Source: Candidatus Bathyarchaeia archaeon
Lineage (GTDB): Archaea > Thermoproteota > Bathyarchaeia > 40CM-2-53-6
Direction: 5' to 3'
Assembly (NCBI GenBank): GCA_035935655.1
Contig: DASYWW010000046.1
Span: forward strand, 90,709-154,708
Length of the DNA stretch: 64,000 nt
A program made the translations under genes and the position numbers. The notes beneath the pieces were generated by a model. It was not told the origin of the DNA and did no database searches. It saw only the letters and a list, made by a program, of their open reading frames with translations. Shown in pieces: positions 5,046-42,863 of this stretch. The first letter of the stretch is position 1. Each line of letters opens with the position of its first letter.

Positions 5046-5160
5046 TCTATCGTATTAGATATATCGCATCCGATATGGTTTCATATAAAGAGTTCTTTGA
5101 AAAAGCCTCTCTCTCGAAACGAGTTTATTAGCGAAGGTCTGCATCTTGTAAATTGAATGT

Positions 5161-5733
5161 ATGCCTGCCTCTAAGGTAATTATCGTCAAACATTCACAAC
5201 TTCATAGTACTCTCGCACATCCGCAAGGGATTCCCAGAGGGTTTCTGCGTCTCTACGTCTTGAAGCGAATCGCCGTGAGACCAGCTCACGGGTACGATCT
5301 CTTGCAAGAGATCGAGAGCAAGACTGAGGGAGTCTGGAGGCCGGGAGCTGGTTCCATCTATCCGATTCTGAAAGAGCTTGTAAAAGGGGGTTACATTAGG
5401 GCAGAATCTCACGAGAAGACCGGAAAGTCCCAGCGCATATATCACATCACGTCTGAAGGACGAGCGCTACTACAGCAATCGGGTGAGATGCTGTTGAAAA
5501 CTGGACAAAACTGGGGAGCCATGAGATCTATAATCATAGAACTCGTTGATCCGAAGAACATTCCTACCATGTTCACCCATATGACTGCCGGACAATTCGC
5601 GTTTCTCCGTGGAATCCTCGAAACGAAAAGAGACAAGATTCCGCGTAAAGAAATTCAGTTCATGTTGAAAGAATATGCCCTTAATCTTGAGAGACAACTC
5701 GACTGGACAAGGCGAATTCTCAAGAAATCATGA
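5161..5733 (+). CDS. PadR family transcriptional regulator
   Basis: 'HGYDLLQEIESKTEGVWRPGAGSIYPILKELVKGGYI' is the PadR winged-helix core. It is transcribed divergently from the ABC exporter. Confidence 0.7.
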   Translation: MPASKVIIVKHSQLHSTLAHPQGIPRGFLRLYVLKRIAVRPAHGYDLLQEIESKTEGVWRPGAGSIYPILKELVKGGYIRAESHEKTGKSQRIYHITSEGRALLQQSGEMLLKTGQNWGAMRSIIIELVDPKNIPTMFTHMTAGQFAFLRGILETKRDKIPRKEIQFMLKEYALNLERQLDWTRRILKKS

Positions 5734-33816: not shown

Positions 33817-35193
33817 TTGAGATTGAGAACTCTATTACTAGTCGCATTGCTAGTCATTGGGATGATTGCAGTGCCTGCTCTTCCGCGGGCACATGCAGCG
33901 TCAGGAACCTACTTCGACAGTGTCGTTGTCGTAGCGATGGAGAACCAGAATTATGCAGATGTTATGGGTACCGGAGCTGGAAGCTCGAATGCTCCATTTA
34001 TTGCAACCCTGTTGGCCGCTGGAGCGACGATTCCTCTTTACCATGGTTACGGTGCCTCCGGGAGGACTATTGGAGGATGTTCAGCTGGCTGCTATACGGC
34101 GTTGATTTCCGGATCTGACCAGGGAATCTCTGACGGGTACTCTTGCTGTATCAACGCTCCCACCCTCATGGATCGAATGGCCTCGGGAGGTCTGAAATGG
34201 CAGGCGTTCTGCGAGGACGGATGTCCGAGAGGAAACGACCACTTCCCCTTCACAGGATTTTCCAGCATTCACACGAGTTCCAACATTCACGGGAGCACTG
34301 GTCCGCTCGATCCCGAGTATGTGGCAGCGTTGAACTCCGGATCGCCTGCCAATTTCATCTGGCTGACTCCAACGGATGGCCACAACATGCACGACAACTC
34401 CATCCAGACCGGAGACTCATATCTCCACGACCTCCTCGTCGGATCGTCAGGATCTTTGGCGAGTCCAGCTTCAGGATCGGTTCTGGCCAGCACTCTCTTT
34501 GCGCCCGGGTACAGGACTATGCTGATGCTCTGGTGGGACGAGTACGACCCAGCTCCGATCATGTTCTACAGTCCAGGAATTGTCAAGCAGGGTTACGTTT
34601 CCTCTAGCGACGTGTATGACGAGTTCTCGATTCTCCATCTGATGGAGAACAACTTCGGTCTGTCAACTCTGGCCGCGAACGATGCCGCTGCAGCGCCGAT
34701 GACCGAAATCTTTGGAATGTCTAATCCGTCGGACCTGACAACGAGCTTCACACTCTCTCCCTCAATCCCTGTCGTGAACTCACCTGTAACGTTCACGGCA
34801 ACAATCCTGGGAGGAATGGGCCCCTACACTATAAGCTGGGATTTCGGTGATGGTAATACCGCCACTGGAGCCTCAGTCACCCATACCTACGCTGGTGTTC
34901 AGTCGTACATAGTGACTGAGACCGTTCAAGACTCGTCTACTCCACCGAAAACCTCTACCAGCTCTCAAACAGTCAATGACAAAGCGGCTTCTGGAAGCTC
35001 AGGCGGAGGATCAGGAGGAGGTCCCAGCGGAGGCTGCTTCCTCTGTGGGACGTTCTCTGCGATCTCTACCAGCATGTGGCTGCTTGTTATCGGTGGGCTT
35101 TTGGGGTTGATTGGCTCGCTTGTTCTGCTCACGGTTAGGGCGCGGGCGAATCTGGCGCGGACGAAGCGACGGATGAATCACACGCATCGCTAA
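33817..35193 (+). CDS. Secreted phosphoesterase-family (PLC/AcpA-like) protein with a PKD domain and C-terminal membrane anchor
   Basis: Signal peptide, 'VVVVAMENQNYADVMG' phosphoesterase N-motif, PKD 'WDFGDGNT...HTYA', Gly/Ser linker, and a TM helix with a basic tail. Confidence 0.6.
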   Translation: MRLRTLLLVALLVIGMIAVPALPRAHAASGTYFDSVVVVAMENQNYADVMGTGAGSSNAPFIATLLAAGATIPLYHGYGASGRTIGGCSAGCYTALISGSDQGISDGYSCCINAPTLMDRMASGGLKWQAFCEDGCPRGNDHFPFTGFSSIHTSSNIHGSTGPLDPEYVAALNSGSPANFIWLTPTDGHNMHDNSIQTGDSYLHDLLVGSSGSLASPASGSVLASTLFAPGYRTMLMLWWDEYDPAPIMFYSPGIVKQGYVSSSDVYDEFSILHLMENNFGLSTLAANDAAAAPMTEIFGMSNPSDLTTSFTLSPSIPVVNSPVTFTATILGGMGPYTISWDFGDGNTATGASVTHTYAGVQSYIVTETVQDSSTPPKTSTSSQTVNDKAASGSSGGGSGGGPSGGCFLCGTFSAISTSMWLLVIGGLLGLIGSLVLLTVRARANLARTKRRMNHTHR

Positions 35194-39452: not shown

Positions 39453-42400
39453 TCAGGTCCTGCGAGGTAGTCCGCTGGTCTTGCAGAATATGTTGTTCCT
39501 GTAGATATTGCCAGTGCTCGTCGTGTCCTGATACGCGTCAAAGATGCTGTTCGTGCATGCAAGATTACTCTGAACAAGGTTGTTGGAGGAATGTGAGGTC
39601 AGTGCGAATCCATAGGCGCCGTTCCCGTTCGCGCTGTTGAATAGAATACCGTTCGATGGTGAGCTGATTAATAGAAACCCGTTATCATGGTTGATGTTTG
39701 CCCGGTTGCCTGCGAGACCGATAAGGCTTGATGCTTCCAAGCGGAAACCATCGTGAAGATTATTGGTCGCATTGTTGAGGAACAGCGCATCGAGGGTAGA
39801 CTGGGTTATCATGTATCCGTAGCTGTTGGAATAGGCGCTGTTATGGAAGACAAGACTTCGCGTTGAGGATAAGAGCTGGATTCCTATGTAGAAGTTTGTG
39901 ACTCGACAGTTTTCAACAATCACTCCCCTCCGATTATTCAACAGAATGCCTGGATATGCGCCTGCGAGCTGGTCTGTTGTGATTCCCTGGATAGTGTGCC
40001 CGTTACAATTCAACGTGACATTGTCCGCACCGATCACTATGCGACCGGTAAGGTCAGTGGTTAGAGTAGTATTGGTGCTAACTGGGAAGGTGGGGAAGGA
40101 GAGGCCGTTGATCGAGGTGGACCCGCTGCTGCCGAGGTGGCTCACATCCCCTGCATAGCCACCGGTAATAGTCTGGGGGCCGACAGAAGTAGCGGCGGGG
40201 CTGTAGCTTACTGCGCAGGTCGCGGTCGCCCCAGTGCCCGTCAAGGAGCAGGTGGAAGGAGTGAATGTTCCCGACTGGCTGCTCAGGAAGCTAACGGTCG
40301 TGGTGGGGGTTTTTGATGTCCCAGAGTCGGCATCGCTCACCGAGGCAGTGCAGGTGCTAGGATTGTTCACTACGACGGAAGCGGGAACACAGTTGACGCT
40401 CATGGATGTGGAGCGATGCGGTGTCGAGAAGTAGGCAGCCCAGCTAGCCTCGATCGCGACTGCTGTCGGGCGGTTAAGTTCCTGGCCAAAGTCGCATCCT
40501 ATCCGACACCCAATGTCGCACCCTATGCGACAGCCTATGTCACAGAAGATCCTGCATCCGATATCACAGTTAATTCGGCATCCGATGTCGCAGTTTATCC
40601 TGCAGCCAACATTGAAGTTGTCACTCTGGACGAAGTTGAACCGAAGATTTGACCAGTCATCATGACCGGTCAGAACGCTTTTCAGAGTGTCATTATTGAG
40701 ATCGTTCACGATGCCTGCGGTGAAGGTTCCACTGCAGCTCCAGTCCAACGGATGATTCAGCAGGTCTCTCTTCACGGTTCGATGGTCAGGACATACCCAG
40801 CTCGTATAGTCGCTCGCGTTCGACAAGACCGTCCAGTCGTTCAGGCTAGTCTCGTTAAGCGTCGGCAAGGCTTGGCTTGAATAGTCGAATCGGGTCACGT
40901 TTCCTGTCGGAGTCTTTGTTATGATGCCTACTACTTGGTGTTCGTAGCTCATCACGCTAAGATAGTTGGGTTTTCTGTTGACCTCATCAGTGCCACCATG
41001 CATTAGACCAAGGTTGTGACCTAGCTCATGCATGAGCGTGCCCGCTTGCTCGTTTACTGATCCTACCTTGTTGGTCCAAAGACCAAGACTGACAATGAAG
41101 TTGCTTCCGAATGTCTCCCCAACGCCGGACTCAGTGTCGCCTGGAGATGTCTGGTTGATGAACAGGCCATAGTGGAAGTAGTGCGCCCTGTTAGCGTCGA
41201 AGTAGGTTGCCTTCACGGTGTCGAACGACATGGGTTCGCTATGTGTGAAGCTAAGGGCATCCTGCTCGGGAATCGCGTTCCTGACATCAAATATGAGCTT
41301 GATGCCGGTTGACTTCAAGGGAAATCCTTGGTATGGACAACTTGCGGCAGCTGGAGTAGGAGCCGAGTCGAAAGCATTGGTCACAATGTCAAGAGCCTGT
41401 TGAAGCGGCTTGAAAGTGTAGAGACCTTGAGCTGGCTGCATGTAGTCCAGTTGTACTAGCACGGTTTTCCGGCATGGATCGACCCCAAGAGCTTGCATCT
41501 CCGGGGATAGAGCGACGAAGTCAGGTATTCCATCCCCTGGGGTGTCGAGCTTAGCTGGAGAAGGTTGAATTGTTATCTCGACGGCCGGTGCGGATCCAGG
41601 GAGTGTGCCTGTGAAAATGTCCGCTAGATTGATTGTGCCGTTGAGAGGAACGTTCCTCGTAACGATCCTTGCTGAGCCGGTAACATTCGTGGTTGGATAC
41701 TCATAGATTCCGTAGGTGGAATTTGACTGGATTGTAAGCCCGATGAAATCGCCAGGGAGAACAGTGATCAGACTGTCCGTGTAGTAAGGTATGACTGTCC
41801 ATTCAGTGAGCACAAACGGATAATCGGGTAGTCTGGCTGAAAGCACGGGTCTCGGATCATGGATTGGCCCTGCCTCAGCAACTGTGAGGAGGGTTGGTGC
41901 GGTCGGGATGGTCTTCCTGAATACTTTGAGCTGGATCCCTATGGGGGTTGGTGGGACGGTAGTCGAATTTATTACGCCGTTCATGAACTGGGCTTTCCAG
42001 CCGGTGATGTTGCCCGGTAGCACGACCTGATAGGGCAAGACCCATGTGTCAGCGAAGTTCGGCGCGCCGCCTCCCGTAAAAATGCCTGTGATATTGCCTG
42101 GACGTGGTACCGAAGAGAGAGCAGTTGGAAGATGCACTCCTAGCGATTGTGATTGAACACTTTCAGGGTCCGCTGTTAGGGTTGCTATGCAAAGGGTCGT
42201 GCAGATAGTGGTCGTGAACATGCCCAAGATCAAACATAGATCAGTGTTCGGTACGCTGCCCGTTGTCGAGGCAAATCCGATTGAGATTGTGGAACAGCCC
42301 GTTGCAAATCCGATGTGAGGATCTGCTCCGGCTGGTCCTATGAGAGATATTTTGAACAGTCGGCCCGAGGATGGAGCGGCTGTGTTGGCGCCGATGATAT

Positions 42401-42863
42401 CAAGATGTGCGACGCCGAAGCCATCGTGCGATCCACATCCAGATCCGACATTGTTGATGCAACTATCACTGATGTGACTAGCGAGAATTGTGTTCGTCAG
42501 GTCCAGGCCAGTCGCGTTCATTACGGTTGGGTCCCAGTGAAGGTATACCCCTGACGCGTTGAAGCTGGGTGATCCGAGAACGTTTACCGAGACGTCTAAC
42601 CGACCGGTAGAGTCTGCAGTCAGGCGAGGAAGAGTTTGCGGACAGGCAGTAGAATCCCCCGGGACTAGGCATACTCGACCGACGAAGGGTGGAAGCATGG
42701 GTGTTGCAGCCGCCTCCGGGGAAGGCGCCGGAGTCGGTGTCACTGATTGTGAACTGATTGTTAACAGGAGCTGTGACGAAGCAATCGCGAGGCTCAGAAG
42801 TAAGACTATCTTATATGAGGCGGATTTGCGTCCCTGACTCAGCCAACTGATTACTATCTGCAC
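39453..42863 (-). CDS. Giant secreted multidomain protein with a metzincin zinc-metalloprotease domain, a Cys-ladder repeat and a C-terminal right-handed parallel beta-helix (NosD/pectate-lyase-like)
   Basis: Signal peptide. 'HELGHNLGLMHGG' (HExxHxxGxxH) with a 'SVMSY' Met-turn. A 5 x 8 aa 'GCRIxCDI' repeat. C-terminal beta-helix repeats 'NCRVTNFYIGIQL...NSAYSNSYGYMI...NATNNLHDGFRL'. Confidence 0.7.
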   Translation of the reverse strand: MQIVISWLSQGRKSASYKIVLLLSLAIASSQLLLTISSQSVTPTPAPSPEAAATPMLPPFVGRVCLVPGDSTACPQTLPRLTADSTGRLDVSVNVLGSPSFNASGVYLHWDPTVMNATGLDLTNTILASHISDSCINNVGSGCGSHDGFGVAHLDIIGANTAAPSSGRLFKISLIGPAGADPHIGFATGCSTISIGFASTTGSVPNTDLCLILGMFTTTICTTLCIATLTADPESVQSQSLGVHLPTALSSVPRPGNITGIFTGGGAPNFADTWVLPYQVVLPGNITGWKAQFMNGVINSTTVPPTPIGIQLKVFRKTIPTAPTLLTVAEAGPIHDPRPVLSARLPDYPFVLTEWTVIPYYTDSLITVLPGDFIGLTIQSNSTYGIYEYPTTNVTGSARIVTRNVPLNGTINLADIFTGTLPGSAPAVEITIQPSPAKLDTPGDGIPDFVALSPEMQALGVDPCRKTVLVQLDYMQPAQGLYTFKPLQQALDIVTNAFDSAPTPAAASCPYQGFPLKSTGIKLIFDVRNAIPEQDALSFTHSEPMSFDTVKATYFDANRAHYFHYGLFINQTSPGDTESGVGETFGSNFIVSLGLWTNKVGSVNEQAGTLMHELGHNLGLMHGGTDEVNRKPNYLSVMSYEHQVVGIITKTPTGNVTRFDYSSQALPTLNETSLNDWTVLSNASDYTSWVCPDHRTVKRDLLNHPLDWSCSGTFTAGIVNDLNNDTLKSVLTGHDDWSNLRFNFVQSDNFNVGCRINCDIGCRINCDIGCRIFCDIGCRIGCDIGCRIGCDFGQELNRPTAVAIEASWAAYFSTPHRSTSMSVNCVPASVVVNNPSTCTASVSDADSGTSKTPTTTVSFLSSQSGTFTPSTCSLTGTGATATCAVSYSPAATSVGPQTITGGYAGDVSHLGSSGSTSINGLSFPTFPVSTNTTLTTDLTGRIVIGADNVTLNCNGHTIQGITTDQLAGAYPGILLNNRRGVIVENCRVTNFYIGIQLLSSTRSLVFHNSAYSNSYGYMITQSTLDALFLNNATNNLHDGFRLEASSLIGLAGNRANINHDNGFLLISSPSNGILFNSANGNGAYGFALTSHSSNNLVQSNLACTNSIFDAYQDTTSTGNIYRNNIFCKTSGLPRRT
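40488..40607 (-). repeat. Coding tandem repeat, 5 x 24 nt, encoding (GCRI-xCDI)x5. This gives a Cys every 4th residue across 40 aa.
   Basis: Read directly from the sequence. The units have diverged at synonymous positions (agg/cga/cgc/cgg for Arg). Confidence 0.8.

Follow-up and report, generated by a model that had tools for sequence, protein, structure and literature searches.

The 64,000-nucleotide stretch of Candidatus Bathyarchaeia archaeon DNA analyzed here (GenBank assembly GCA_035935655.1, contig DASYWW010000046.1, positions 90,709 to 154,708; hereafter the window) carries on its minus strand a gene for a secreted multidomain protein, within which lies a short tandem array of Cys-rich octapeptides (Table 1). 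The open reading frame (ORF) represents a real gene because its product is 100% identical to a protein from a Candidatus Bathyarchaeia metagenome-assembled genome at NCBI and has 19 close homologues at 45–63% identity, several of which derive from forest-soil metagenomes. From the N terminus onward, the protein consists of a hydrophobic, apparently signal-like segment, beta-rich domains, a metzincin-like module, the Cys array, a helix, an Ig-like domain, and a right-handed beta-helix. In the translation of the 1136-amino acid (aa) ORF, the array reads GCRINCDI GCRINCDI GCRIFCDI GCRIGCDI GCRIGCDF. A first-pass annotation of this DNA had described it as (GCRIxCDI)x5 at positions 40488–40607 with a 24-nucleotide period, and translation, Tandem Repeats Finder, and repeat finding bore this out, giving a period of 24/12 and copies that are 60–84% alike.

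Table 1. Features of the protease gene and of two neighboring ORFs, in window coordinates (pLDDT, predicted local distance difference test)
Feature	Residues	Position	Strand	Basis or remark
Host gene, secreted multidomain protein of 1136 aa		39453-42863	minus	ORF and translation
N-terminal beta-rich region	64-434	41562-42674	minus	AlphaFold2 pLDDT about 60-90
Metzincin-like catalytic module	about 440-750	40614-41546	minus	homology and invariant alignment columns
Zinc-binding motif HELGHNLGLMH (HExxHxxGxxH)	612-622	40998-41030	minus	H612, E613, H616, and H622 invariant
Candidate Met-turn SVMSY	636-640	40944-40958	minus	S636 invariant; M638 and Y640 nearly so
Conserved segment DWSNLRFNF	736-744	40632-40658	minus	D736, W737, and F744 invariant
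Cys array, five tandem octapeptide units	753-792	40488-40607	minus	10 Cys at spacing 4
Unit 1, GCRINCDI		40584-40607	minus
Unit 2, GCRINCDI		40560-40583	minus
Unit 3, GCRIFCDI		40536-40559	minus
Unit 4, GCRIGCDI		40512-40535	minus
Unit 5, F-cap GCRIGCDF		40488-40511	minus
Conserved helix ELNRPTAVAIEASWAAYF, directly after the array	795-812	40428-40481	minus	A801, I804, and E805 invariant
Ig-like domain	826-917	40113-40388	minus	Pfam Big_3_5, E = 2.8e-4, below gathering score
Right-handed parallel beta-helix	953-1120	39504-40007	minus	Pfam and AlphaFold2
Upstream co-directional neighbor, 1094 aa		43029-46313	minus	helical; no Pfam match
458-aa ORF		33817-35193	plus	PKD domains; weak match to a phosphoesterase family

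The array is maintained by purifying selection on every unit

A ladder of ten Cys is excluded as a product of chance because the longest spacing-4 Cys ladder reached in 20,000 shuffles of the protein had 4 Cys, compared with the 10 observed, and the analytic chance expectation for the array is ∼2e-13. Six-frame translation of 1.06 Mb of DNA returned such in-frame ladders in family members only. At the codon level, 46 of the 68 same-amino acid codon pairs in the window array differ between units, and the Arg codons across the five units are AGG, CGA, AGG, CGC, and CGG. An RNA or opposite-strand feature at this position was rejected, as the window has no Rfam matches and no ORFs overlap the array.

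We then applied Nei-Gojobori counts to nine arrays, comparing the proportions of synonymous (pS) and nonsynonymous (pN) differences. Between the units of an array, pS was 0.83 and pN 0.077 (pN/pS ∼0.09), and between arrays, the values were 0.82 and 0.21; in three arrays, pN was 0 at a pS of 0.87–1.02. When the arrays of two homologue loci (L081 and L090) were compared with each other, pN was 0.018, against 0.141 in the 40 codons upstream. Better conservation of the array than of its flanks, together with low pN at saturated pS, points to strong purifying selection on every unit. Thus, the array is real and kept by selection. For the window array, within-array pS is about 1, which agrees with the earlier view that the repeat is upheld at the level of the protein and is no fresh product of slippage.

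The dismissal of slippage that went with this view holds for the window array and fails for the family as a whole, in which copy number is either 0 or 2–5. In a neighbor-joining tree of the catalytic module, sister proteins bear different but internally uniform units (P0009 with RTG against P0007 with AAG; P0004 with RVG against P0005 with ALS). Within-array pS accordingly covers the whole range, from 0 (locus L084) through 0.55 (L083) up to saturation. In L084 (positions 5149–5220 of that locus, encoding P0007), the three units are identical at the DNA level and represent a recent homogenization or expansion in one lineage, whereas the synonymous sites of the other arrays examined are saturated or nearly so. 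The simplest account is that rare slippage or conversion re-founds an array, which is then held by long purifying selection while its synonymous sites saturate.

The unit has a period of eight, and the array is an insertion into the catalytic module's last loop

Approximately 18 relatives carry 2–5 units of the form G-C-x-h-(G)-C-[D/E/N]-[I/V/L/F] at the same alignment site (Table 2). In a family logo built from 51 units, Gly at position 1 and Cys at positions 2 and 6 are each present in 100%, position 5 is Gly in 71%, and position 8 is Ile in 84%, followed by Phe, Leu, and Val. Position 7 is Asp in 37 units, Glu in 8, and Asn in 6 (the last in P0008, P0014, and P0015); position 4 is Ile, Val, Ser, Leu, or Thr, and position 3 is variable (Arg, Ala, His, Ser, or Val, also Gly and Lys). 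The polarity of the unit alternates with a period of 2, the even positions being Cys or hydrophobic and the odd positions Gly or polar. The number of Cys in an array is always even, and the two irregular caps retain two Cys each. These data do not sustain a description of the array as ten symmetric tetrapeptides with alternating charge: what is conserved recurs every 8 residues, conservation within the unit is confined to the C-[D/E/N]-[I/V/L/F]-G half, and the charge alternation is particular to the window protein, given the range of residues that relatives have in place of its Arg.

Table 2. Number of octapeptide units in members of the family
Units	Proteins	Remark
2	P0008, P0013, P0014, P0015, P0038, P0039	P0039 ends (truncated) after 2 units
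3	P0002, P0004, P0005, P0007, P0009, P0011, P0016, P0017
3 plus irregular cap	P0003, P0006	caps GCRV-CDF and GCKE-CAF
4	P0010
5	window protein only	longest array seen

A Cys-free loop of ∼10 residues, for example FRHGGHIDAPAGVELTF and FADGIHLSVLNVEEITF, takes the place of the array in five paralogues (P0012, P0018, P0019, P0049, and P0061) and in the homologues from bacteria and metagenomes. The repeat-less paralogues share the overall architecture of the array-bearing proteins, and the existence of array-less homologues with this loop indicates that the module is dispensable for fold and catalysis. The segment DWSNLRFNF, which directly precedes the array and which metagenome relatives carry as DW[AS]NL[RQ][YF][NK]F, is the last element in common with the bacterial homologues before the variable loop. 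On the far side, a helix of the pattern E-[IL]-T-F-x-x-A...IE follows the Cys-free loop in the array-less homologues too; because this helix is conserved without the array, the array is a loop insertion whose ends may lie close together, which favors a hairpin. Judged from the alignment, the array therefore interrupts the catalytic module at its final loop, ahead of the C-terminal helix, and is not a plain interdomain linker. The first-pass annotation had set it between the protease and the beta-helix, a location that needs correction because the helix and the Ig-like domain intervene.

The unit may have arisen from this kind of loop. An ancestral loop of 8–9 residues, G-G-H-I-x-x-P-x-G, would have gained two Cys to become G-C-H-I-G-C-D-I-G, and tandem duplication would then have brought it to 2–5 copies; a derivation of GCHIGCDIG from GGHIxxPxG by two Cys substitutions and duplication is what the aligned sequences suggest. 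The array-bearing family is rare: a contig scan of metagenomes yielded five loci, one of them a known family member, and a scan of genome contigs yielded distant bacterial relatives of the catalytic domain only and no further arrays. The array is restricted to a small family of proteases of soil Bathyarchaeia.

The array is carried by an exported metzincin-like protease rich in paired Cys

The catalytic module is widespread in many bacterial phyla at 30–40% identity, and in tblastn searches 80 genome loci matched query residues from about 420 to 745, with the matches ending at ∼743–745, short of the array. Both elements that define metzincins, the HExxHxxGxxH motif and a downstream Met-turn (for which SVMSY is the candidate), are present and invariant or nearly so in 19 sequences. 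Pfam matches centered on the zinc motif (Reprolysin_3/5, M66, Astacin, and M10) all fell below cut-off, and weak phmmer matches in PDB at the same motif were to adamalysins and MMP-12 with E-values of 0.2–0.9. These matches cover the zinc motif only and do not place the protein in a curated metzincin family (such as M10, M12, M43, or M66), so that the name metzincin is supported at the level of motifs.

Of the remaining domains, the beta-rich region at residues 64–434 matched nothing in Pfam or NCBIfam and, lying ahead of the catalytic module, is a candidate prodomain or binding domain. The helix at residues 795–812 was predicted in both AlphaFold2 models described below and is probably the C-terminal helix of the catalytic module. 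AlphaFold2 modeled the Ig-like domain as a beta-sandwich (pLDDT 72–85) and the beta-helix with a pLDDT of >90; the latter also matched Pfam Beta_helix (1.7e-11; 44.4 bits against a threshold of 25.9) and NosD (5.3e-11; 42.8 bits against 23.6). In six paralogues (P0010, P0013, P0018, P0019, P0038, and P0061), the beta-helix is replaced by another beta-rich module and a type I dockerin, which hints at a cohesin-dockerin-type assembly of extracellular proteases in Bathyarchaeia.

Outside the array, the protein has 20 Cys that form 10 neighboring pairs, and these are kept or lost pairwise across the family: among the 19 sequences, for example, both partners are present in 6 for C221/C225, in 12 for C953/C986, and in 10 for C1103/C1127. 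Pairs retained or lost as units are a hallmark of structural disulfides in exported proteins.

Structure prediction and database searches

Structure prediction, which the first-pass annotation had proposed as a check on the array, was run with AlphaFold2 on the full-length protein (19-sequence alignment) and on a 108-aa segment (16 sequences). In both cases the array was returned at a pLDDT of 25–30 with no secondary structure. No confident structure was thus obtained, and the low pLDDT is not evidence of disorder because alignments of 16–19 sequences are shallow. An alpha-helical Cys stripe of the twin-CX3C or copper-storage type was rejected on account of the two Gly and two beta-branched residues in each octad and the period-2 polarity.

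The array matched nothing in Pfam, in NCBIfam, or among PDB sequences, and we found no paper describing this module in literature searches on CXXXC or C-X3-C repeats, cysteine-rich tail fibers, and PF27846. To this extent the earlier statement that it is not a described domain stands; Cys-Xaa-Xaa-Xaa repeats as such are a described class, represented by TIGR04117, PF27846, the minicollagen cysteine-rich domain (CRD), and C_tripleX, and by available sequence comparisons the array belongs to none of these. A profile of artificially padded units searched against 5.8 billion proteins was insensitive: it missed known family members and returned short ORFs only, among them the small peptides P0024, P0025, and P0027.

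A proposed disulfide-cross-linked finger on the protease module

The first-pass annotation had put forward a disulfide or metal beta-ladder, an idea that remains plausible. We favor the explanation that the array forms a disulfide-cross-linked, beta-type mini-structure serving as a rigid finger or stalk of variable length on the protease module, and we assign this reading a probability of roughly 45%. It is favored because the Cys are paired throughout the protein, the array Cys are even in number, the polarity of the units has a period of 2, both flanks belong to one module, and the array is dispensable. The period-2 polarity points to a strand that is extended and has two faces: the units would take up a beta-type conformation with Cys and Ile or Val on one face and Gly and polar residues on the other, and the array would be locked by disulfides within a secreted, disulfide-using protein.

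Two connectivities can be envisaged. The array might be a laddered hairpin, in which two strands would be bridged at every fourth residue in the CX3C...CX3C geometry of tachyplesin and gomesin, or it might be a chain of small Cys-x3-Cys loops closed locally between C2 and C6. Tachyplesin, polyphemusin, and gomesin are antiparallel CX3C...CX3C hairpins with a cross-strand disulfide ladder and hydrophobic residues in between on the same face; unlike the array, they are free cationic peptides of 17–18 residues with two disulfides, have no tandem repeat, and show no homology to it. A hairpin pairing Cys k with Cys 2n+1−k would pair all Cys at any copy number. In the window protein, it would, suggestively, place the odd unit GCRIFCDI at the tip, the N-type units on one strand, and the G-type units on the other. 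The resulting rigid, protease-resistant and non-catalytic finger would project from the protease module, where its role may be to position the enzyme, to shield it, or to make contact with the substrate or the cell surface.

Several points weigh against this reading. Many Bathyarchaeia inhabit reducing habitats, where extracellular disulfides are unstable. Nothing separates disulfides from metal-thiolate or thioether cross-links, and the hairpin topology is without covariation support, the sequences being too few. Neither AlphaFold2 run gave the array a structure, and prediction was poor for the catalytic module as well (pLDDT <50 over residues 616–816), so that adjacency of the flanks is unsupported. 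Moreover, a simple spacer role fails to explain why units are identical within a protein and different between sisters.

The cross-links could instead be made by metal, an alternative that we consider unlikely. The ten Cys and five Asp of the window array would then bind Zn, Cu, Fe, or Ni as a structural cluster, a store, or a latency switch for the protease. The Cys are dense, each is preceded by Gly, every second one has a conserved carboxylate or amide beside it, and the array lies near the zinc active site in sequence; in addition, Bathyarchaeia often live in reducing, metal- and sulfide-rich settings, and Sco proteins and copper storage proteins use Cys-x3-Cys motifs to bind copper. However, the acidic position can be Asn, the array contains no His and matches no metallothionein or other metal-binding family, and the units number anywhere from 0 to 5 while the active-site motifs stay the same. 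Further, Cys i and i+4 of an extended segment are too distant for one ion unless strands pair, and the rest of the protein looks disulfide-bonded.

Relation to Cys-Xaa3 ladders and radical-SAM targets

A further alternative is that the array is a target of a radical S-adenosylmethionine (SAM)/SPASM maturase, which would link the sulfur of array Cys to a carbon of neighboring Asp, Glu, or Asn and thereby install redox-insensitive thioether staples; the ring geometries [D/N/E]-x-x-C and C-x4-D would be possible. What brings this alternative into view is a HMMER profile search of the array region against 1.84 billion representative sequences, which retrieved, besides family members, unrelated proteins with very long (C-[E/Q]-x-x)n ladders. 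The grammar of these ladders (817 tetrads) is Cys, then Glu (63%) or Gln (29%), then Thr, Ser, Val, Leu, or Ala, and then Gly, Ser, Ala, or Thr, and it corresponds to the C-[D/E/N]-[I/V]-G half of the window unit, the part that is conserved. Smaller ladder proteins (P0069, P0074, and P0075) carry PF27846 (tSAM_targ_Cxxx_rpt), and proteins of this smaller kind are encoded beside a radical-SAM gene within phage tail/baseplate modules. NCBIfam holds both a radical-SAM maturase family with a CXXX-repeat target (TIGR04115) and a Cys-Xaa-Xaa-Xaa repeat radical-SAM target (TIGR04117).

The large ladder proteins (P0040–P0043, P0046, P0048, P0051, P0055, P0057, P0058, and P0065) are metagenomic, 600–1400 aa long, with about 80–117 Cys each and ladders of up to about 220 uninterrupted residues; loci with ladder proteins include L095 (8001–9860), L096, and L097 (673–4103), and several of the large proteins have N-terminal parts that are Phage-tail_3 or central-tail-fiber-J-like.

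We examined four ladder gene contexts (L095/L096, L097, L088, and L098). In L095/L096, the ladder protein lies in a phage tail/baseplate module with a radical-SAM gene immediately downstream, and in L097, a radical-SAM gene lies two genes away; the visible part of L098 has no radical-SAM gene. The L095 enzyme resembles the thioether-forming maturases SCIFF, PapB, and QhpD at scores below their cut-offs. This suggests that some phage tail fibers are cross-linked by radical-SAM enzymes, a subject on which our literature search found no paper. In L088 (242–1727), a gene for a 432-aa radical SAM/SPASM enzyme is followed directly downstream by that for the 58-aa peptide P0027; the enzyme reaches the cut-off of no named NCBIfam maturase family. 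P0027, P0024, and P0025 are 58–61 aa long and end in ...CETGCDIGCDQACDIGCDNACDVGCDYGGP. The L088 peptide is probably an uncharacterized precursor of a peptide made by ribosomes and modified after translation (RiPP), with a ladder of Cys-Asp tetrads.

Like the targets of the TIGR04117/PF27846/TIGR04115 system, the array has Cys at every fourth residue without interruption and, in the conserved half of its unit, the order Cys, acid or amide, aliphatic or beta-branched residue, small residue or Gly. It differs in its true period of 8, in its 4–10 Cys as opposed to tens to >100, and in its setting, which is a loop of an exported protease from an archaeon; theirs is a small peptide or a phage tail fiber. 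An acid or amide follows only every second Cys of the array, compared with Glu or Gln after 92% of Cys in the 817 tetrads; the spacing of 4 holds over all 10 Cys. Neither the 50-aa array segment nor the whole protein matched TIGR04117 in an hmmscan of NCBIfam at E ≤ 1, and PF27846 is absent from the precomputed Pfam listing for P0001–P0019. The motif CxxxCxxC occurs in no ORF of at least 100 aa in the 64-kb window, and two ladder-associated radical-SAM enzymes found no phmmer match (E ≤ 10) among the 810 ORFs of the window and eight homologue loci (L081–L087 and L090). Because no model matches, no radical-SAM gene is nearby, and there is one acid or amide per two Cys, the array is, on available tests, not a member of the CXXX-repeat radical-SAM target class.

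A precedent for the chemistry exists in the ranthipeptide PapA (freyrasin), in which repeated CX3D/E motifs are converted to thioether rings and PapB-type enzymes link Cys to Asp or Glu (PMC9413430). Unlike the array, PapA is a small leader-dependent peptide with an adjacent SPASM maturase and Cys-x3-Asp spacing; the spacings of the array are C-x4-D, C-D, or D-x-x-C. Given also that the annotated neighbors of the host gene and of its homologues are unrelated and that the host is large, with a signal-like N terminus and many apparent disulfide pairs, we regard a thioether-stapled array as improbable. The specific version in which a radical SAM/SPASM enzyme encoded elsewhere installs [D/N/E]-x-x-C or C-x4-D staples in the loop of this exported metalloprotease appears quite improbable; if true, it would amount to ranthipeptide-type chemistry on a folded enzyme, giving a redox-proof, cross-linked finger that would suit anoxic habitats, in which disulfides fail.

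Inter-chain assembly, other Cys-rich repeats, and neutral expansion

The array could also act between chains, as an oligomerization element such as a triple-stranded beta-helix or a parallel in-register zipper with inter-chain disulfides. Possible analogues are the triple-stranded beta-helix of phage T4 gp5, built from VxGxxxxx octapeptides, and, for the inter-chain disulfides, antibody hinges and the C-terminal CRD of minicollagen. The octapeptide period, the invariant Gly, and the alternating inside/outside pattern would suit such an element, and the related Cxxx ladders take the place of the fiber part in phage central-tail-fiber-J-like proteins, themselves trimeric rods. Register shifts would be tolerated between identical units, a possible reason for selection to keep arrays uniform. 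On the other hand, 2–5 octads would give just 2–5 layers, and the overall architecture is the same in paralogues without the repeat; we hold inter-chain assembly to be rather improbable.

The minicollagen CRD of cnidarian nematocysts (CX3CX3CX3CX3CC with a conserved Pro) shows that a CX3C domain can trimerize via disulfides, which can reshuffle from intra- to intermolecular links (PMC4863159). Like the array, it is a short spacing-4 Cys run in a secreted structural context; unlike the array, it is a fixed six-Cys, eukaryotic, collagen-flanking domain, and the array has no CC, no Pro, no flanking collagen repeats, and no sequence similarity to it. Pfam C_tripleX (PF02363), of unknown function, likewise has Cys at every fourth residue (C-X3-C-X3-C) and differs in being an animal family found mainly in Caenorhabditis elegans. 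The array did not match it at E ≤ 10 and thus did not reach its gathering threshold of 22.9 bits; the related ladders score 10–14 bits.

Finally, a neutral, functionless low-complexity expansion made by slippage in a surface loop that tolerates it would fit the copy number of 0–5, the paralogues without the module, the DNA-identical units of L084, and the lack of predicted structure, but it is highly improbable and largely refuted by the selection signal, namely low within-array pN/pS at saturated synonymous sites, invariance of G1, C2, and C6 in proteins that are 45–63% identical overall, and better conservation of the array than of its flanks.

Gene neighborhood

The genes around the host gene encode tautomerase-like, metallo-beta-lactamase-like, and AHSA1-like proteins, TPR proteins, and a methyltransferase. 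A local maturase or operon partner for the array was rejected, the neighboring genes being unrelated. The upstream co-directional neighbor is 56% identical to residues 1–1079 of the 1260-aa neighbor of homologue P0002, which carries a Guanylate_cyc domain; the window copy ends before the cyclase domain. Similar cyclase proteins of 1230–1260 aa flank P0003, P0007, and P0009, which suggests that synteny of the protease with a large cyclase-type signaling protein is conserved. The 458-aa ORF with PKD domains probably encodes another exported protein near the protease gene.

Implications

If the array is a self-contained cross-linked beta finger, its unit of 8 residues and 2 Cys would be among the smallest known repeat units that build a stable extracellular structure, and designers of rigid, protease-resistant spacers would gain a compact element. 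The evolution of the array is unusually clean for a coding micro-repeat and allows the tempo of homogenization to be compared against purifying selection. The grammar of the motif also links it to the little-studied Cys-Xaa3-repeat radical-SAM targets, seen here as ladders of hundreds of residues in phage tail-fiber proteins, and establishing whether the archaeal array has their chemistry would reveal if ordinary enzymes carry such cross-links. If the array is merely a disulfide-stapled loop, it would be a minor, family-specific embellishment of a soil-archaeal protease.

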